Below, piece by piece: positions 32,618 to 45,275 of a stretch of 64,000 bases of DNA. The notes beneath the pieces are model-generated. The model ran no database searches and was not told the origin of the DNA. It saw only the letters and a program-made list of their open reading frames with translations. Source of the stretch: Candidatus Caenarcanales bacterium (GTDB lineage: Bacteria; Cyanobacteriota; Vampirovibrionia; Caenarcaniphilales; Caenarcanaceae). Location of the stretch: positions 192-64,191 of the forward strand of contig CANLTT010000001.1 of assembly GCA_947494115.1 (NCBI GenBank). Direction: 5' to 3'. A program made the translations under genes and the position numbers. The first letter of the stretch is position 1, and the number at the start of each line of letters is the position of its first letter.

Positions 32618-33241
32618 ATGCAAATTAAAACCACTCTTCAAACTAAATTTACGCCAGCGGAGCAAGCTAATTCTAAAAAGCTGATAATTGTTCTTCATGG
32701 CCTAGGAGACAGCTTAAATGGTTATTATTGGCTCAAAGAAGAATTAAATTTACCGAGCTTTAATTATTTATTTATCAATGCCCCCGACCCTTATGGTGAT
32801 GGTTTTTCTTGGTATGACCTCGACGGCGGCGACCAACAAACGGGCATACAAAGAAGCCTTAAGCTTTTAACCGCCCTTTTAGAAGAACTTAAGCAAGAAG
32901 GTTGGCTGAGCGAAAACATTATTTTATTTGGTTTTTCGCAAGGTTGTGTAATGTCTTTAACTTTGGCTTTAAGCTATTCTGGCTTATTTGCGGGCATTTG
33001 TGGAATTAGTGGCTATTTGTTTCCGCAAAAAGAAATTTCGGCTTTTGCCCCTAAGCAAAATATTTTAATAACATATGGTAAGTATGATGAAATGGTGCGC
33101 CCTGAGGTTACTCAAGCCAGTATTGCTTCCTTAAGCTCTTTGGGTTTGACGGTTCAAGAAAAGCAATTTGCCAAAGGACACACGATTGATTTTGCGGAAG
33201 AATTTCCCTTCATTACTGACTGGCTTAAGCAATTGCAATAA
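32618..33241 (+). CDS. Phospholipase/carboxylesterase family alpha/beta hydrolase
   Basis: Contains LIIVLHGLGDS and the nucleophile elbow GFSQG. Confidence 0.7.
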   Translation: MQIKTTLQTKFTPAEQANSKKLIIVLHGLGDSLNGYYWLKEELNLPSFNYLFINAPDPYGDGFSWYDLDGGDQQTGIQRSLKLLTALLEELKQEGWLSENIILFGFSQGCVMSLTLALSYSGLFAGICGISGYLFPQKEISAFAPKQNILITYGKYDEMVRPEVTQASIASLSSLGLTVQEKQFAKGHTIDFAEEFPFITDWLKQLQ

Positions 33242-34007
33242 GTGAATAAGAAGAATTACCAACCCCAGCCTGCGTACCTAAAGCTAAACTATTGCCAGTT
33301 TGAAGTGAACCTGGTCTATTGCTTTGTATTTGTGCTGACGTGTTTCCAGCCGTATTAAATTGTATTCCTTGATTGCTTTCAGCCGCCGAAGTAACTCCAA
33401 AACTAGTTGGATTAGGTGTTGGGGCAGAATAACCAACTTGCTCTAAACCGTAAGAATTAAAAACTTGTGTTTGCGGAGCTACAGACACTTTAAGTTGGGC
33501 TTGAGTTGAACCCTTTTTGAATTTAGCAAATATTTGTTTTAAAAGTTGTTGAGCTTTATTATTGCCCTGAGCCGCAAAACTGCCAGAAGAACTAAAATCA
33601 AAAGGACTAGCTGGGGTCGTAACATTTACATTTGGAGCGGCAACCATTTGGCCGTTTGCAAGCTGACCTTGAGTATTAACTCCATTTCCTTGTGCTGAAA
33701 CTTGACCCGCTATGGTGTTTTGAATACCAGCCGAACCCGTTACATTGCCCACTCGTGTAGGCGCAATATTTGGATTATATGTAGGTGTATCTAAGGCAAC
33801 GGCCGCATTTGCCTTATTAAGACTCTGCAAACTACCAGACATTCCACCATTGGCATTTGATTGTATTTGCTGGTTTCCAGCTGGTTTATTTTTTACTTGA
33901 GTTTGATTACCATTTTCATTAGCACTAGCCAAAGCAACTTGATTATTTGAATAACTGTCTGAATAAACGGCTGGCCCAGTAATGCTACCTTGAAAAATAA
34001 GACTCAT
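33225..34007 (-). CDS. Low-complexity Q/N/G/S/T-rich hypothetical protein
   Basis: Extreme compositional bias and no recognisable motifs. Confidence 0.3.
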   Translation of the reverse strand: MSLIFQGSITGPAVYSDSYSNNQVALASANENGNQTQVKNKPAGNQQIQSNANGGMSGSLQSLNKANAAVALDTPTYNPNIAPTRVGNVTGSAGIQNTIAGQVSAQGNGVNTQGQLANGQMVAAPNVNVTTPASPFDFSSSGSFAAQGNNKAQQLLKQIFAKFKKGSTQAQLKVSVAPQTQVFNSYGLEQVGYSAPTPNPTSFGVTSAAESNQGIQFNTAGNTSAQIQSNRPGSLQTGNSLALGTQAGVGNSSYSLIAIA

Positions 34008-37527: not shown

Positions 37528-37652
37528 ATAAATAAGTTTTTATAAAATACCTTATGAGTATACTGTGTTTTGTTTTTGACCCGAGATTACAAATTTTGCT
37601 ATTTCAAATCAAGTCGGCTTCCACTTGTTAAAAACCTTATCTCTAGAGTTTA

Positions 37653-37796
37653 ATGAATTTTTTTAGCCTACACACTCTTTGGGTTTTTATTAGTGGAGAT
37701 CTGAAAGCATTATTTGCTAAAGAATTTTACTTTAAAAGAGGATTTTCAGACATGAACCAAGAACCTTTTATTTGTAATTCTTTGCTCAATTAAATC
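37653..37796 (+). pseudogene. Internally deleted remnant of a second copy of the caspase-like peptidase gene (paralogue of 39117..39998)
   Basis: Nucleotide identity to 39098-39165 (including the last codons of the upstream small ORF and MNFFSL.TLW.FISGD) and to 39938-39965 (QEPFICNS). The roughly 800-bp middle is absent. Confidence 0.7.
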
Positions 37797-37917: not shown

Positions 37918-38499
37918 TTGAAGGAATTTAATTTTATGTCTGTTTTAGGAGTAATAGCTAGTTTGCTTCCACTTACAGGAACCAGCCTGCAATCTCCAGC
38001 TACTCATTTCCCTTTACCTTTAGAAAAATCTATTCCCGCTTCAGAAAGACTTAACAATAAGCAAGCGCAAAGTGGTGGTGGAGAGTTGACAACCTTCGAG
38101 CAACTTATGAACTATATCAAGGTGCAGCCAAGTCCTTATTTTTCTTCTGTAAATGTAGAATATCAAGGTGTTCTTTTTGCATGTATAGCTCAACCAGCTT
38201 CTCAAGCTGATCTAGAAAACTCACCATTTGTAAATATTAGCTGTACAGGACTTAACGGAAAGATCTTAAGGTTTAATAGAAACGGTTCTAAGCAAGAACT
38301 ATTTATAATAACTCCTCTTAATCCCACTTGCTATGGCCAAATCATAGCTAGAGAATATGGTGAAGAGTATTGTTTGCAACCTAGCAATTCTAGAGTTCTT
38401 CCAGCAAACAACTTGCTAAATTGGAATCAAAGATCTTTCTTGCTAAATTGGAATCAAAGATCTTTGGTGAACTCTTCTAATTTTCGCCAGAAGAGTTAA
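37918..38499 (+). CDS. Hypothetical protein with a signal-like N-terminus and a C-terminal tandem 9-aa repeat (LLNWNQRSF/L)
   Basis: An ORF unique to the first copy of the duplicated locus, with no recognisable family. Confidence 0.4.
   Translation: MKEFNFMSVLGVIASLLPLTGTSLQSPATHFPLPLEKSIPASERLNNKQAQSGGGELTTFEQLMNYIKVQPSPYFSSVNVEYQGVLFACIAQPASQADLENSPFVNISCTGLNGKILRFNRNGSKQELFIITPLNPTCYGQIIAREYGEEYCLQPSNSRVLPANNLLNWNQRSFLLNWNQRSLVNSSNFRQKS
38413..38466. repeat. 27-bp perfect tandem repeat x2 (ttgctaaattggaatcaaagatctttc/g) inside the 37918..38499 ORF
   Basis: Direct reading of the sequence. Confidence 0.9.
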
Positions 38500-38538: not shown

Positions 38539-38705
38539 CTGTTCAATTAACCACTTTCAAGCAATTCGGCTTTTTGTTGAAGCAAATTTAAACGCCTTTT
38601 TAAGCCTTCTGGCAGATTTTCTAGTTTTGGGTTTTGCGCAATAACCTTATCTGCTGAGGTTTTAGCTTTTTCAAGAATATCACCATGCAAGGCTAAGCTT
38701 GCTAA
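38539..38705. repeat. Non-coding duplicate of the recG 3' end plus the recG-caspase gene intergenic junction (paralogous to 39999..40165)
   Basis: About 165 bp of near-identical sequence (ctgttca.ttaaccactttcaagcaattcggctttttgttgaagcaaatttaaacgcctttttaagccttctggcagattttctagttttgggttttgcgcaataa...) is present at both places. Confidence 0.85.
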
Positions 38706-38775: not shown

Positions 38776-39117
38776 ATGGGAATATATACTTTGGTTGATA
38801 AACAAAAGAAAATGGGTAAAAGTAAATATATTTCAAGGCACTTGTTGCCTAGCTTGCCAAATCCTGCTATTACCCTGATCAATAGAGGACTAAGCTCTCT
38901 GTGGGAAATTGAACCTATAGCACTTTCTGATGATTCAATAGCTAATTATCTTTTTCGGCTCAATAAAACCGAGTTTTGGTATTTAAATTCTAATGGTTTG
39001 CCGCTTCCAATTAAGCCAGACAAAATAGGCGAACTGAAAATAATTGATTGTATAGATTTTGAAGACTATGAAGATACAACTGATAAAATTGTCAGAAATT
39101 TATTCTCTAAAGTTTAA
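38776..39117 (+). CDS. Hypothetical small protein, translationally coupled (TAATG overlap) to the caspase-like peptidase gene
   Basis: A 113-aa ORF whose stop overlaps the downstream start. No recognisable motifs. Confidence 0.4.
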   Translation: MGIYTLVDKQKKMGKSKYISRHLLPSLPNPAITLINRGLSSLWEIEPIALSDDSIANYLFRLNKTEFWYLNSNGLPLPIKPDKIGELKIIDCIDFEDYEDTTDKIVRNLFSKV

Positions 39118-39998
39118 TGAATTTTTTTAGCTTAAATACTCTTTGGATTTTTATTAGTGGAGATGATGAAGATAGATTTATTGATGACATTCGCTTTGGG
39201 TTGGCTGTTCTAAAGAGTAAAGGCATTGACGAAGAAAATATAAAAATCTTCATTGATGGTGAGCAAAACCTTATTCATGCTCGCTTTGGTAACGAATTAG
39301 GAAATAATCAGGTTTTATGTCTATCTGCTTTAGAAGAAGAGTTAAAAACAAAAAGCTACAAAAATGTCGTTCTTTTTACAACTGGACATGGTAGCGAGTT
39401 TGGATTAGCGGGGAATAATCCGATTTCTCCTTATAAACTTTTGAAAATAATTAGGTTAATTCCTGAAATTGAAAGAGGATTATTTGTGATTGGACAATGT
39501 TATGCGGGAATTTTCAATCATATTGACGCAAAACCTACCAAAGGTTCTTCTGAAGCAGAGATTTGTATTTTAGGCAGTGCTGGCTTTTCTCCGAGTTTAA
39601 GTTCTTCAGGGTCTCTAGAAGAGAAACTACCAAAAAAACTAATTGATTTATATGGCTTGAAAAAATGGACGGCTAATGTTTTTCTTTTTTATTTTTTTCT
39701 TTGGCTTTATGAACCTCAAGATATTGACGGAAACGGTGAATTAACAGTAATGGATGCTTATAAATTTGTGGCAATAAAAACTAGCGAACATATAAACAAT
39801 GAGAAAAAAATGTGGACTTTTAGTTCTGTTTTTAAAATTCAACAATTTAAAGACAGAGTTTCTGAAATGCTTGATGAAAACGAAAAGATTTTATACTTAC
39901 AAGAAATAGATTCAATACTTGAACTTTTACATATTTATCAAGAACCTTTTATTTGCAATTCACGGTTTGCGCAAGAATTAAAATTTGAAATTAGCTAA
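39117..39998 (+). CDS. Caspase-like clan CD cysteine peptidase (C14/C13-like His-Cys dyad)
   Basis: Hydrophobic beta-strand blocks precede each residue of a catalytic dyad: NVVLFTTGHGSEFG (His-Gly) and, about 35 aa later, GLFVIGQCYAGIF (Gln-Cys-x-x-Gly, compare caspase QACRG). Total length is 293 aa. Confidence 0.55.
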   Translation: MNFFSLNTLWIFISGDDEDRFIDDIRFGLAVLKSKGIDEENIKIFIDGEQNLIHARFGNELGNNQVLCLSALEEELKTKSYKNVVLFTTGHGSEFGLAGNNPISPYKLLKIIRLIPEIERGLFVIGQCYAGIFNHIDAKPTKGSSEAEICILGSAGFSPSLSSSGSLEEKLPKKLIDLYGLKKWTANVFLFYFFLWLYEPQDIDGNGELTVMDAYKFVAIKTSEHINNEKKMWTFSSVFKIQQFKDRVSEMLDENEKILYLQEIDSILELLHIYQEPFICNSRFAQELKFEIS

Positions 39999-40008
39999 AG
40001 CCTGTTCA

Positions 40009-42408
40009 CTAACCACTTTCAAGCAATTCGGCTTTTTGTTGAAGCAAATTTAAACGCCTTTTTAAGCCTTCTGGCAGATTTTCTAGTTTTGGGTTTTGCG
40101 CAATAAACTTATCTGCGGAGGTTTTAGCTTTTTCGAGAATATCACCATGCAAGGCCAAACTTTCTAAACCAAAGTCAGAGAGGCCACTTTGTCGGGTACC
40201 CAAAAACTCACCCGGACCTCTGATTTTAAGGTCTTCTTGGGCAATTATAAAACCATTTTGCGTTTGCTCCATTATATGCAGTCTTTGCTCGGTTGTAGTT
40301 GAACGAGAGTCTGCAAAAAGAAAACAATAAGATTGCCACACACTTCGTCCAACACGGCCTCGCAATTGATGTAGCTGAGACAAACCAAAGCGTTCAGCAT
40401 TTTCGATAATCATAATCGTGGCATTTGGCACATCAACACCAACTTCAATTACGGTTGTTCCAACCAAAACCTGAATTTCATTTTTGCGAAAAGCATTCAT
40501 TACTTCATCTTTATCTTCGGTAGAAAGCTTGCCATGCACAATTCCAACTTTATAATTTTCATAAATTTTTTCGAGTTTAATGGCTTCTTCGGTAACTGCT
40601 TTAGCGGATAGGCTCTCTGATTCCTCGATTAGCGGATAAACAATATAGGCTTGCCGCCCTTCGGCTAATTGTTTTTTGACAAATTCATGAGCGGCTTTGC
40701 GGTCTCGGCCTTGCACTAAGCGAGTTTGTATTGGTTTGCGGCCAGCGGGCAATTCGTCAATTTCAGAAAGATCGAGATTGCCATATAAAGCCAAAGCCAA
40801 AGTGCGTGGAATTGGAGTAGCTGTCATAAAGAGGCAATCGACCATTTTACCTTTGCGTTTTAAAAACTCTCTTTGCTTGACTCCAAAACGGTGCTGTTCA
40901 TCAATAACCGCTAAACCTAAATTTGCAAATTCAACTCCTTCTTGAATTAAAGCGTGAGTGCCGACTACAAGAGGAATTTGACCATTAGCTAAACCTGTTG
41001 AAACTTCTCGTCTTTCGGCTGTTTTTTGTGAACCAATCAAAAGAGCCGTCCGCACGCCAAGTGGAGAGAGCCATTCTTGAAATTTACGAAAATGTTGTTC
41101 GGCTAAAATTTCGGTTGGAGCCATTAAAGCCGATTGTTCTCCACGTTCAAGTGCCATTAACATTGTCAAAAGCGCCACAATGGTTTTTCCGCTACCGACA
41201 TCACCTTGCAAAAGCCTGTTCATGGCGATTGGTTGCCTTAAATCGATTTGAATTTCGCTTAAAACTTTTGTTTGAGCCTTGGTGAGCGCAAAAGGCAATA
41301 ATTGGCTAAATTTGGCAAAAATTCCATTTTCCGATAATAATAAAAGCCTATTTTGGGTGCTGAGCTTGGCGGCTGTGTGAGCGGCTCTTTTGATTGAAAG
41401 CGGCAATTGCATCAAAAAAAACTCTTCAAAAATAATGCGTTCTTGGGCTTTTTCTAGTTTGCTTTCAGAATCAGGGAAATGCATTTGAAAAGCGGCCTCT
41501 TTAAAGCTCATTAAATCAAATTCTGGCGGCAAGGTTTCTTCAATTTGGTCATTAAATTTGTCAAAAGCATTATAAATAATTTTGCGCAAGCGGCTCTGAT
41601 TAAGGCCTTCGGTTAAACCATAAATTGGCACAAAACGCCCAACTTCCAAAGATTCAGAACCTTGTTTTTCTTCATCTAAAATCTCAACCGAAAAATTGGT
41701 AAGTTGATAACGACTTGTTTTATCAAATTGAGCGCAACCAGAGACCATTACCAAAGAATTAATCGCAAATTGTTTTTTATAATTTTCCAACAAAAACTTA
41801 TTAGAACGACCAGCCACAAATTTATTCAGCGTAACTGTGCCCGTGGAGTCGGTGATCTGAATATTTAAAATGCCTAAATTGGGATTACGTGGACTTTGAA
41901 AAGCATTAACCTTGCTAACCACGCCTATAATGGTGGCTTCGAGACCAACTTTTAAATCACGAATATAAACTCTTTCGCTAAAATTTAGGTGTTTTCGAGG
42001 CCAATAACAAAGCAAATCTTGTACTGTAAAAATGCCAAGTTTATTTAAAGTTTTGGCCAAAATGTTTCCCACAGCGGGTAGCCATTTTATATCGGTTTCC
42101 CAGAGCGCACTTTTAGTAAATGTTTCTTTTTTTTCGGTTTTCTCAAGGTCTTTGGCCAAATCGTGCAAATTGGTTTTAGTGTTTCTTATAAGTTGCATTC
42201 GGCTTGGCAAGTCTAAGCTGGCATAAATTTTATATTTTTTACTTAATTCTTGCGCCAGCGTAATTTGATGATTTGCAAATAAAATATCAAAGGTTTTATG
42301 CATAAATTGCGAAAAAGTTTCCTTTTGGCCGACTAAATCGCTATAAGATGCCTTTTCCTCAAATTCAATTGCTTTTTTTATTTTATTTATATAAACCGCA
42401 AAGCTCAT
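40009..42408 (-). CDS. recG: ATP-dependent DNA helicase RecG
   Basis: A wedge/OB domain and a superfamily-2 helicase with Walker A (GDVGSGKT), DEQHRFGV and a C-terminal TRG motif region. Confidence 0.9.
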   Translation of the reverse strand: MSFAVYINKIKKAIEFEEKASYSDLVGQKETFSQFMHKTFDILFANHQITLAQELSKKYKIYASLDLPSRMQLIRNTKTNLHDLAKDLEKTEKKETFTKSALWETDIKWLPAVGNILAKTLNKLGIFTVQDLLCYWPRKHLNFSERVYIRDLKVGLEATIIGVVSKVNAFQSPRNPNLGILNIQITDSTGTVTLNKFVAGRSNKFLLENYKKQFAINSLVMVSGCAQFDKTSRYQLTNFSVEILDEEKQGSESLEVGRFVPIYGLTEGLNQSRLRKIIYNAFDKFNDQIEETLPPEFDLMSFKEAAFQMHFPDSESKLEKAQERIIFEEFFLMQLPLSIKRAAHTAAKLSTQNRLLLLSENGIFAKFSQLLPFALTKAQTKVLSEIQIDLRQPIAMNRLLQGDVGSGKTIVALLTMLMALERGEQSALMAPTEILAEQHFRKFQEWLSPLGVRTALLIGSQKTAERREVSTGLANGQIPLVVGTHALIQEGVEFANLGLAVIDEQHRFGVKQREFLKRKGKMVDCLFMTATPIPRTLALALYGNLDLSEIDELPAGRKPIQTRLVQGRDRKAAHEFVKKQLAEGRQAYIVYPLIEESESLSAKAVTEEAIKLEKIYENYKVGIVHGKLSTEDKDEVMNAFRKNEIQVLVGTTVIEVGVDVPNATIMIIENAERFGLSQLHQLRGRVGRSVWQSYCFLFADSRSTTTEQRLHIMEQTQNGFIIAQEDLKIRGPGEFLGTRQSGLSDFGLESLALHGDILEKAKTSADKFIAQNPKLENLPEGLKRRLNLLQQKAELLESG

Positions 42409-42528: not shown

Positions 42529-43572
42529 TTGAATAATACAAATAATACAGAATTGTTTTTGATTGGCATCGATTATAAGTCTAGTCCCGTGGAAGTGCGA
42601 GAGAAATTTGCTTTTTTGCCGCATGAACAAATGGGTGTTTTATGTGCTTTTAAAGCCGAAATTGGAGCTGTTGTTTGTTTAAGCACTTGCAATCGCACCG
42701 AAATTTATTTGTCTTCTAATCTATCAGCCACTGAGGTTAAAAACAAAAGTTATTCTATAATTGCTAATTTAAAAAAGCTTAATTCTAATCTGATCGCTGA
42801 ACATACAAGCTTTTTGGCTGGCCTTGAAGTTGTTAATCATCTTTTTAGGGTTTCTTCTGGCCTTGAGAGCATGATTTTAGGCGAAGGACAAATTTTAAAT
42901 CAAGTTAAAAATGCTTATAGCTCATCTCTGGCTTTTACCGATAATACTCTTAATCAATTATTTCAGAGAGCTTTGGCGGCTGGCAAAAAGGTGCGCACTT
43001 TAACCGAAATTTCTAAAGGTGCAATGTCTGTTCCATCAGCGGCTTTGCAAATTGTGCAAAAAATATTATTTCCCTCCGAATTATCCGAAAAAAATATAAT
43101 GGTTCTCGGAGCTGGCCAAATTGCCGAAATCTGTCTTGAATTACTGTCTTCTCAAGGTGCTAATCATATAACTTTAGTAAATCGCTCTCTCAATCACAAT
43201 TTGCAATTAACAAAATATGGCATAAATCAAACTATCAGCTATGCAAGCCTATTACAATATATTTATACTCAAGATTTGATTTTGGTTTGTACTGGTGCAC
43301 CTCATTATGTGATTGAAGCCAGCTTTTTTGAAAATCATTCTAAGCCAATTATTATTTGTGATTTATCTTTGCCGAGGAATGTTGATCCTGAAATCCAAAA
43401 AATTCCTAATATTAAATTACTTGATTTGGACTTTTTAAACACGGCTATTTCTCAAAATATTTCACGGCGTTCTTCTCAGATGGAGACAGCCGAAGAAATT
43501 ATAAAACTCGAAATCGATAAGTTCTTTCAGTGGAAAACCAAAGCGCAACAATTTACAAATAATTATGTCTAA
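42529..43572 (+). CDS. hemA: Glutamyl-tRNA reductase
   Basis: Contains LFLIGIDYKSSPVEVREKFAF, STCNRTEIY and a Rossmann VLGAGQIAE. Confidence 0.85.
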   Translation: MNNTNNTELFLIGIDYKSSPVEVREKFAFLPHEQMGVLCAFKAEIGAVVCLSTCNRTEIYLSSNLSATEVKNKSYSIIANLKKLNSNLIAEHTSFLAGLEVVNHLFRVSSGLESMILGEGQILNQVKNAYSSSLAFTDNTLNQLFQRALAAGKKVRTLTEISKGAMSVPSAALQIVQKILFPSELSEKNIMVLGAGQIAEICLELLSSQGANHITLVNRSLNHNLQLTKYGINQTISYASLLQYIYTQDLILVCTGAPHYVIEASFFENHSKPIIICDLSLPRNVDPEIQKIPNIKLLDLDFLNTAISQNISRRSSQMETAEEIIKLEIDKFFQWKTKAQQFTNNYV

Positions 43573-44905
43573 TTCATCTTATTTTGAACAATTACTAAAG
43601 GCTTTCAGAGAGCAAGCTAGTGGCACTTTAAAAAATGGCAAGCTCGAACGTTGGATTGGAACGGTTACAAAAATTGTGGGTTTGATGATTGAATGCCGTA
43701 TACCGGGTGCCATGATTGGCGAATTGTGCGAAATTGTAACCGAAAATGGTGATAAAAGGCTCGCAGAAGTAGTTGGTTTTAAAGAAGATAGCTCGATTTT
43801 GCTTTTACTTGGAGCTGGTGGTGGCCTTCATCAAGGAAGCAAGGTTTACCCGACTGGCAAAACTTTACAAGTTCCTGTTGGGGAGGCTATGTTGGGCCGC
43901 ATTGTTGATTCTTTGGGGCGACCTTTAGACGGAAAGCCTTTAAGCGGAATCAAAGAATGGCGTGGAATTGATGCCGATCCGCCAGAAGCATATGGAAGGC
44001 CACGCATTGACGAAGTGTTTTCAACGGGGGTCAGAGCCATTGATTCGCTTTTGACCTTAGGCGTTGGCCAAAGAATTGGTTTATTTGCTGGCTCTGGAGT
44101 GGGTAAATCGACTTTGATGGGTATGATTGCCCGTTATAGTGATGCCGAGGTTAATGTAATTGCCTTGGTTGGTGAGCGTGGTCGGGAAGTACAAGATTTT
44201 ATTGAAGCAAGCTTGGGTGAAGAAGGCCTTAAAAAGTCGGTGGTTGTAATTGCTACCTCAGACCAACCTGCCATGTTTCGCCTCAAATGCCTCTTCACCG
44301 CCACAACTATGGCTGAATATTTTAGAGATAAAAATAAAAAGGTTATGCTGATGGTTGATTCAGTAACTAGAACCGCAATGGCTGGACGTGAAGTTGGTCT
44401 ATCGGTTGGTGAGCCGCCCACTATGAAAGGCTATACTCCTTCGGTTTTTGCCATGCTACCTCGCATTTTGGAGCGGGCTGGTTTATCTAAGGCTGGCTCC
44501 ATAACCGCCATTTATAGCACCTTGGTGGATGGAGACGATTTTAATGAACCAATTGCTGATACTGTACGGGGAATTTTGGATGGCCATATTTTACTTTCCC
44601 GTGATATTGCGGCCAAAAATCATTTTCCAGCTATTAATATTTTAGGTTCTGTTAGTCGTTTATTTACAGAACTCGCTGATCAAGACCATCAAAAGGCCGC
44701 TGGTGATATCCGAAATATGATGGCTACTTATCAAAAATCTGAAGATTTAATCACAATAGGGGCTTATACCAAAGGCACCGATCCACGATTGGACAGAGCG
44801 ATTATGTTACAAGACCCTACAAATGACTTTTTAAAACAGGCAACTCATGCGCCAACGAACTTTGAAGAAACTATAAGACACTTAAAAGAAATCTCAAGTT
44901 TATAA
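43565..44905 (+). CDS. fliI: Flagellum-specific / type III secretion ATPase (FliI family)
   Basis: Walker A (GLFAGSGVGKSTLMGMIAR), a Walker B region (KVMLMVDSVTR) and typical FliI N- and C-terminal regions. Confidence 0.85.
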   Translation: MSNSSYFEQLLKAFREQASGTLKNGKLERWIGTVTKIVGLMIECRIPGAMIGELCEIVTENGDKRLAEVVGFKEDSSILLLLGAGGGLHQGSKVYPTGKTLQVPVGEAMLGRIVDSLGRPLDGKPLSGIKEWRGIDADPPEAYGRPRIDEVFSTGVRAIDSLLTLGVGQRIGLFAGSGVGKSTLMGMIARYSDAEVNVIALVGERGREVQDFIEASLGEEGLKKSVVVIATSDQPAMFRLKCLFTATTMAEYFRDKNKKVMLMVDSVTRTAMAGREVGLSVGEPPTMKGYTPSVFAMLPRILERAGLSKAGSITAIYSTLVDGDDFNEPIADTVRGILDGHILLSRDIAAKNHFPAINILGSVSRLFTELADQDHQKAAGDIRNMMATYQKSEDLITIGAYTKGTDPRLDRAIMLQDPTNDFLKQATHAPTNFEETIRHLKEISSL

Positions 44906-44915
44906 GTTTCTCAAA

Positions 44916-45275
44916 TTACCATCTAGCTGAAAAATTGCTACGGCCTCTGCTATTGCCGCCACCGCCGCCACCGCCGCCGTTTCCGCCTCTGCTATTACCG
45001 CCGCCGCCTCTTTTGAAATCTTGAGATGGTGGTTTAGCTTCGGTAACTTTGAGTGGACGACCTTGATAGCTAGCTTCATTAAAGCGGTTAATTGCTTCAA
45101 CGGCTTCTTCAAGAGTATTCATCTCTACAAAAGCAAAGCCCTTGCTTCTACCAGTTTCTCTATCAGTTATGATTTTGACTGATACGACACTGCCGCACTC
45201 TTCAAAAATAGATCTTAACTCATCTTCGGTAGCACTGAAAGGCAGATTGCCTACGTATAATTTCTTATTGTTCAA
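44916..45275 (-). CDS. RRM-type RNA-binding protein with a glycine-rich C-terminal tail (cyanobacterial Rbp-like)
   Basis: RNP2 (LYVGNL), RNP1 (KGFAFVEM) and a C-terminal GGGGNSRGGNGGGGGGGGNSRGR tail. Confidence 0.9.
   Translation of the reverse strand: MNNKKLYVGNLPFSATEDELRSIFEECGSVVSVKIITDRETGRSKGFAFVEMNTLEEAVEAINRFNEASYQGRPLKVTEAKPPSQDFKRGGGGNSRGGNGGGGGGGGNSRGRSNFSARW

Follow-up and report, generated by a model that had tools for sequence, protein, structure and literature searches.

A candidate two-gene module of a legumain-like peptidase and a small upstream partner in a Caenarcanales genome

We examined two adjacent genes in a 64,000-nucleotide (nt) stretch of DNA from a Candidatus Caenarcanales bacterium (assembly GCA_947494115.1, contig CANLTT010000001.1, positions 192 to 64,191 of the forward strand), hereafter the window, in which positions are counted from its first letter. 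The downstream open reading frame (ORF) of the two, ORF293, encodes a conserved and apparently active cysteine peptidase of clan CD that, judged from its family alignment and its predicted structure, is closest to the legumains, and the upstream frame, ORF113, encodes a small partner protein. Together they appear to represent an uncharacterised two-gene protease module, which is mobile and frequently carried by prophages and defence islands. We hypothesize that this mobile pair works like a toxin-antitoxin (TA) or abortive-infection system, a reading that we hold to be about evenly poised between right and wrong.

The peptidase ORF293 and its relation to legumains

A first-pass annotation, made from the sequence without database searches, had recognised two motifs in the ORF293 product, VVLFTTGHG and LFVIGQCYAG, each preceded by a hydrophobic strand and about 35 residues apart, and had taken them for the catalytic dyad of a clan CD peptidase. 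Both motifs are present, with His91 and Cys128 spaced 37 residues apart, and in the AlphaFold model each stands at the C-terminal end of a beta-strand (residues 83-89 and 120-125). The resulting catalytic layout, with His-Gly after strand beta3 and Cys after strand beta4, aligns with that of legumain and is conserved among relatives. A word-indexed search returned 13 such relatives, and searching 1.84 billion cluster representatives with a profile gave 293 clusters (family size being counted at 50% identity), 251 of them at E<=1e-10; nearly all members are single-domain proteins of 270-340 residues. In an alignment of 157 family members Cys128, Gly92 and Gly131 are kept in all 157, while His91 is kept in 154, Asp24 in 151, Gln127 in 149 and Arg20 in 138, and conservation exceeds 92% at each of Ser160, Ser162, Trp184 and Asn187. 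Position 18 holds Glu in 116 members and Asp in 14, and position 21 holds His in 114 and Phe in 27, the window protein having Phe. The conservation of Cys128, Gly92, His91 and Gln127 across the 157 members argues that the motifs are not a product of chance.

Structural comparison with caspases, metacaspases and legumain, which had been proposed as a check at first pass, found a caspase-type fold with legumain as the best match. The model of ORF293 is an alpha/beta/alpha sandwich whose central sheet is superposable on caspases and legumain. Structural scores were 17.4 for human legumain 4aw9 (193 residues, 2.6 A) and 17.2 for OaAEP1, followed by 15.2 for metacaspases 9 and 4, 14.9 and 14.2 for GPI8, 12.8-14.1 for caspases and 13.2 for SAVED-CHAT. 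Juxtaposition of the His91 and Cys128 side chains is implied, for the model, by the extent and closeness of the legumain superposition.

Sequence profiles gave a similar ranking. When a profile of 74 family sequences was compared with PDB, only C13 chains were matched at E<=0.001, including sunflower AEP1 (1.1e-5), VPE-gamma and VdiPAL1 (both 1.4e-4) and other peptide asparaginyl ligases (PALs) and legumains, and metacaspase-4 reached an E of only 0.25. Profiles were needed for this, as a PDB search with ORF293 as a single sequence returned noise only. The Pfam model Peptidase_C13 (PF01650) gave sub-threshold matches in 4 of 12 relatives (best E 6e-4), and the E. coli homologue has a recorded faint match to C13; the gathering threshold of PF01650 was not reached, the window protein had no match to it at E<=1, and precomputed Pfam data held no PF01650 assignment among 13 relatives. 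Peptidase_C14 (PF00656) had no match at E<=1 in the window protein or in 11 relatives. A fold search of BFVD found weakly scoring giant-virus caspase-like proteins only, and no phage relatives.

At the level of residues, Trp10, Glu18, Asp19, Arg20, Phe21 and Asp24 of ORF293 align with legumain Trp30, Asn42 (the third catalytic residue), Tyr43, Arg44 and His45 (both of the S1 pocket) and Asp48, while His91-Gly92 and Gln127-Cys128 align with His148-Gly149 and Ala188-Cys189. The same register was seen in the alignments with PDB chains. In legumain the S1 pocket consists of Arg44, His45, Ser216 and Asp231 and gives specificity for Asn/Asp (PMC4357240). By alignment, the conserved Ser160 and Ser162 probably correspond to Ser216, and the conserved Trp184 and Asn187 of the family lie near the expected equivalent of Asp231. 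The catalytic Asn42 of C13 enzymes is not kept, and the Glu18 aligned with it is a possible functional substitute. Since the structural, profile and residue alignments agree, the fold and catalytic apparatus of ORF293 are those of clan CD, with C13 as the nearest family, and we regard the identity and fold of the protease as close to certain.

The view that the dyad is a chance motif, or belongs to an inactive pseudo-protease, could draw on the fact that no curated family model recognises ORF293, which had no match among Pfam, NCBIfam, PADLOC and PHROGs models. The alignments and the model already contradict it, and we consider it barely conceivable, given a dyad conserved in 154-157 of 157 relatives, a confidently predicted clan CD fold and profile matches to C13 enzymes in which the catalytic residues line up.

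C13 (legumain, AEP, VPE, the PALs butelase and OaAEP1, and GPI8; PF01650) is thus the closest known family, from which ORF293 differs in several respects. Legumain has Ala-Cys and Asn42 where ORF293 has Gln-Cys and Glu18, and the legumain family is lysosomal, vacuolar or located in the endoplasmic reticulum, whereas ORF293 is predicted to be cytoplasmic, with no room for a signal peptide because the first core strand of the model begins at residue 8. Legumain also carries a C-terminal activation peptide and an LSAM prodomain, while ORF293 lacks both and has a separately encoded small partner. Three hallmarks of C13 are therefore missing: Asn42, the secretory zymogen form and the LSAM domain. 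In the family profile the C-terminal 80 residues show no sequence match to the legumain C-domain, and they are modelled as an EF-hand-type loop, a two-helix hairpin and one strand. Metacaspases and orthocaspases (C14B) score below C13 against ORF293 in both structure and sequence. The first-pass interpretation is supported, with C13 and not C14 as the nearest family. By sequence and model, ORF293 is a legumain-type peptidase from an undescribed family that lies outside both Pfam C13 and Pfam C14 by their thresholds.

The EF-hand-type loop of 12 residues is inserted after a core helix and followed by a long helical hairpin in the model. Its pattern, D202-x-D-G-(D/N)-G-x-x-(T/S)-x-x-D213, is near-invariant in the 157-member alignment (D202 in 156, D204 in 157, G205 in 153, D/N206 in 156 and D213 in 155), and it fits the EF-hand consensus in its ligand positions 1, 3, 5, 9 and 12, its Gly at position 6 and its modelled flanking helices. 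ORF293 matched the EF-hand protein 2jnx weakly and had no match to Pfam EF-hand models. The loop may bind Ca2+ and so contribute to activation; the Ca2+ site of metacaspases, in contrast, is an acidic pocket.

The small partner ORF113 and its pairing with the peptidase

The overlap that had suggested translational coupling of the two genes is present, as the ATG of ORF293 at 39117 shares 1 nt with the TAA of ORF113 (TAATG). Moreover, the proposal that they form a pair holds well beyond the window, with a partner homologue adjoining the protease gene in nearly all loci for which upstream sequence is available. Hidden Markov models of both proteins placed a same-strand partner directly upstream in 34 of 38 loci with enough upstream sequence and, in a second locus set, in 36 of 37, at a spacing that ranges from a 26-nt overlap to 47 nt. 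The paired loci come from Proteobacteria, Bacteroidota, Spirochaetota, Clostridia, Cyanobacteria and Melainabacteria, and two apparent exceptions (loci L039 and L040) have divergent partners with the same N-terminal motif. We consider functional pairing of ORF113 and ORF293 very probable. Two further loci show signs of module decay outside the window: on a Parabacteroides contig (L041, 110-427) an IS21 IstB-like ORF stands in the place of the partner, and in a Synechococcales metagenome-assembled genome (MAG; L037, 6889-7772) the protease is split into two ORFs and has no partner.

ORF113 is a protein of unknown fold with no known domain, modelled as a folded alpha/beta core with a low-confidence C-terminal tail. 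It had no match among Pfam, NCBIfam, PADLOC and PHROGs models, nor could a DNA-binding domain be detected in it; the sole library match for either protein is phrog_30138 (unknown function), which matches the enterobacterial partners. The upstream ORF exists as first annotated, at a length that needs revision: translation likely starts at Met13 (ATG 38812), giving 101 residues, because homologues begin there and residues 1-13 are modelled at a predicted local distance difference test score (pLDDT) below 50. The first 12 codons (38776-38811) are probably untranslated.

The C-terminus of the partner has a recurrent appearance. Proteobacterial partners end in YFSDLPKPxSLSN followed by 3-12 unconserved residues, those of the clade of the window protein in (K/R)NL(F/L)xx(V/I/T), and those of other clades in SNN..., TNK..., PIN..., TVN... 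or VPN.... An Asn is found 4-13 residues from the C-terminus in 39 of 42 partner representatives (<70% identity), against 19.0 +/- 3.0 (maximum 30 in 1000 trials) for random 10-residue windows of the same partners, an excess that is indicative and not a P-value because the partner sequences are related. A conserved Asn ahead of a short variable tail has the look that would be expected if an Asn-specific enzyme of C13 type took the partner as its substrate or pseudo-substrate. Loss of the tail Asn did not covary with the S1 residues of the protease, whose signature is invariant.

Such a tail could also mark a maturation or ligation system comparable to the plant PALs and GPI8, in which the partner would be cleaved after the tail Asn and then cyclised or conjugated to a target amine, making the small protein the product and not a regulator. 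We find this distinctly unlikely, since nothing points to an acceptor, the tail Asn is missing in a few partners, and the partner, at about 95 residues with a folded core, is unlike known PAL substrates. In addition, it is cytoplasmic, with no conserved export or modification genes nearby.

Distribution of the pair and its locus in the window

The distribution of the pair is patchy across phyla. A pattern-seeded scan of 185,579 GTDB species representatives found at least 25 with a confirmed relative, and 1 of 5426 complete E. coli genomes has the pair. In E. coli and Klebsiella it lies in the nin region of lambdoid prophages, between replication genes and NinB/YbcO/Q, and in the E. coli prophage, where the pair spans 3339260-3340484 of NZ_LR778147.1, hok/gef follows directly; in Serratia marcescens it lies in a prophage between a DNA methylase and an integrase. 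A relative is carried by 37 IMG/VR viral contigs, with the partner present in 33 of the 34 that have enough upstream sequence. Other copies neighbour defence genes. The Paraburkholderia pair occupies an island with an integrase and PriCT/DUF5906, which also holds a full type I restriction-modification (R-M) system and a nuclease of NmeDI type. The next gene upstream in Luteibacter is GajA of Gabija (E 2.8e-197), and Drt8 of DRT8 starts 85 nt downstream in Burkholderia aenigmatica (E 4.5e-129), while a type I restriction endonuclease lies 1.4 kb downstream in Nodosilinea and a TOTE-type primase 300 nt upstream in Pseudomonas reidholzensis. We claim no statistical enrichment in defence islands, because the contexts are mixed and defence genes occur at some loci only.

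Carriage by prophages raises the possibility that the module serves the phage, with protease and adaptor made in lytic growth to cleave host proteins (e.g. those of defence) or to process phage proteins, and with the chromosomal copies as prophage remnants. The early-right operon orientation between replication genes and NinB/Q in E. coli and Klebsiella, the IMG/VR viral contigs and the membership of the enterobacterial partner in a PHROG would all fit such a role. We nevertheless judge it unlikely, as the family is absent from 50,697 phage isolate genomes, several pairs lie in islands that are not prophages, with Gabija, DRT8, type I R-M or TOTE genes alongside, and the Melainabacterial pair lies between dnaG and recG without phage genes nearby.

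In the window, the pair between dnaG and recG is exactly bracketed by two copies of a 158-nt direct repeat that are 96% identical (Table 1), an arrangement that either a Campbell-type insertion or a segmental duplication, both of which are possible, would leave behind. Further upstream, a decayed copy of the module reads as a 46-codon internally deleted pseudogene. Positions 37625-37733 share 75% identity with the junction of the ORF113 end and the ORF293 start (39089-39197), and positions 37744-37780 share 81% identity with the C-terminal coding region of ORF293 (39925-39961). The flanking repeats and the decayed copy beyond them show that the module has repeatedly been gained and has decayed at this site, as would fit a mobile, dispensable element. 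The GC content of the pair (0.28-0.35) does not mark it as foreign when set against dnaG (0.32-0.36) and recG (about 0.33-0.43). An Rfam scan of the window gave nothing, and a promoter and terminator scan did no better than on shuffled sequence. The closest genomic relative, at 62% identity, is found in a Candidatus Caenarcaniphilales MAG, in keeping with the melainabacterial lineage of the window, and there the pair occupies a different locus.

The same evidence bears on a housekeeping role in regulated proteolysis, in which an orthocaspase-like enzyme would be governed by a dedicated chaperone or inhibitor and have nothing to do with conflict. Ordinary genes in many neighbourhoods and the position between dnaG and recG could be taken to indicate such a role, to which we give little credence. 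The distribution is very patchy, with only about 293 clusters in 1.84 billion representatives and the low counts for GTDB species representatives and E. coli given above; close relatives carry the pair at different loci, prophages carry it as well, and in the window it has flanking repeats and a decayed copy.

We also noted genes that adjoin the pair elsewhere. In the nearest relatives (L007, 6952-7878; also L008 and L009), which share 63% identity and have the pair at a different locus, a 308-residue Endonuclease_NS gene (DNA/RNA non-specific endonuclease), absent from the window, lies 7 nt after the protease and may encode a neighbouring effector or belong to the module as a third component. 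In Cupriavidus (L045, 6627-7955) 46 nt separate the end of an upstream 442-residue ClpP-family (CLP_protease) gene from the partner gene, placing two proteases of different classes in one apparent operon.

Table 1. Features of the module and its flanks in the window.
Feature	Position	Strand	Remarks
Decayed older module copy	37625..37780	+	ORF113 end/ORF293 start joined to a remnant of the ORF293 C-terminal coding region
Upstream copy of 158-nt direct repeat	38548..38705		recG 3'-end fragment (last 52 codons, - strand)
ORF113 (small partner)	38776..39117	+	113 residues as called; TAA 39115-39117
Asn108 codon of ORF113 (candidate P1 residue)	39097..39099	+	Conserved in at least 90% of alignment A4
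ORF293	39117-39998	+	293 residues; predicted cytoplasmic single-domain clan CD cysteine peptidase
Glu18-Asp19-Arg20-Phe21 codons	39168..39179	+	hhalign and hmmsearch alignments with legumain
His91-Gly92 codons (catalytic His, after strand beta3)	39387..39392	+	His codon 39387-39389
Gln127-Cys128 codons (catalytic Cys, after strand beta4)	39495..39500	+	Cys codon 39498-39500
EF-hand-type 12-residue loop D202-I-D-G-N-G-E-L-T-V-M-D213	39720..39755	+	Between helices 188-198 and 211-248
Downstream copy of 158-nt direct repeat	40010..40167		Genuine recG 3' end (recG 40009-42408, -)

A possible role in conflict and other features of the window

In animals, in plants and, as recently recognised, in bacteria, proteases of clan CD act as central executioners in immunity and cell death. 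To our knowledge, the bacterial immune members described so far all belong to the C14/CHAT branch (CBASS, type III CRISPR, gasdermin and type IV Thoeris) and have nucleotide-signalling partners. The caspase-like and CHAT proteases that we compared (type IV Thoeris, CBASS-type SAVED-CHAT, Craspase and gasdermin-associated) are C14 or CHAT enzymes, Arg-specific or gasdermin-cleaving, whose activity is triggered by nucleotide signals that TIR, CD-NTase or CRISPR partners supply. Here, instead, a partner of about 95 residues without a known domain accompanies a protease without a ligand-sensor domain. The arrangement resembles that of type II TA systems in that the first gene is small and overlaps or adjoins a larger second gene, with strict co-occurrence of the two, and in that the pair is found in prophages and in islands beside hok/gef and defence genes, with patchy distribution and local decay. 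It differs from them in that the small protein has no detectable DNA-binding domain, and we know of no TA family with a legumain-like protease as its toxin. Full-text searches of the literature found no description of this protease-partner family.

We hypothesize that the partner acts in trans much as the C-terminal prodomain of legumain does, its Asn tail filling the S1 pocket of the protease as a pseudo-substrate or substrate and thereby keeping the protease silent. A trigger such as infection by a phage or disappearance of the partner, perhaps registered as Ca2+ by the EF-hand loop, would lead to cleavage or loss of the partner and free the protease. The enzyme, once free, would cleave proteins of the cell or of the phage on the C-terminal side of Asn or Asp and bring growth to a halt. 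In its boldest form, which we think possible though doubtful, the pair would be a previously unrecognised phage-borne two-component protease system: a cytoplasmic, EF-hand-bearing legumain-like enzyme would be governed in trans by a partner of novel fold that serves, through its conserved Asn tail, as a detachable prodomain, or the enzyme would use that Asn in the manner of PALs and GPI8 to ligate the partner to targets. That the module has a role in conflict, be it defence or TA, is to our mind an even question, while the mechanism through the Asn tail is put forward as a tentative possibility.

Several observations weigh against this conflict reading. Contact between the partner tail and the active site of the protease is conjecture, the S1 His is replaced by Phe in the clade to which the window protein belongs, and the tail Asn is absent in a few partners, such as those of L010 (...SGLFSKI), L029 and L031. 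Many chromosomal neighbourhoods consist of ordinary metabolic or envelope genes, and the defence genes, present at some loci only, are individual cases. The orientation of the pair with the early-right (nin) operon in lambdoid prophages would fit a phage-serving role. Three queries found no homologue in the 50,697 sequenced phage isolates, and none was found in 72,556 plasmids. Finally, neither experiment nor sequence links the pair to known defence or TA families, and neither the two proteins nor their Klebsiella homologues matched a PADLOC-DB v2.0.0 model at E<=1.

If a role in conflict were borne out, it would bring the legumain (C13) branch of clan CD into prokaryotic conflict, as its first functional role there, and in a minimal two-gene form without a nucleotide-signalling partner. 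Control by a detachable prodomain or ligation to targets would, if either is right, amount to a new bacterial mechanism of immunity or cell death, or else to a new mechanism of protein tagging. The conserved Asn tail of the partner offers an immediately testable hypothesis of a substrate or inhibitor. Were the enzyme ligase-competent, protein engineering could also gain a bacterial asparaginyl ligase that is small and cytoplasmic and brings its own recognition tag.

Other features of the window were recorded in passing. ORF193 (37918-38499, + strand), which has a TTG start and a hydrophobic N-terminus and no family match, is situated between the pseudogene and the fragment of recG; within it, a 27-nt stretch is perfectly duplicated in tandem (38412-38438 and 38439-38465), which repeats the peptide LLNWNQRSF. 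By eye, we also assigned three genes that together would fit a melainabacterial or cyanobacteria-like host: a 260-residue low-complexity ORF of unknown function, rich in Gln, Asn, Gly and Ser (33225-34007, - strand), an ATPase of the FliI/type III secretion system type (43565-44905) and an RRM-type RNA-binding protein with a Gly-rich tail (44916-45275, - strand).
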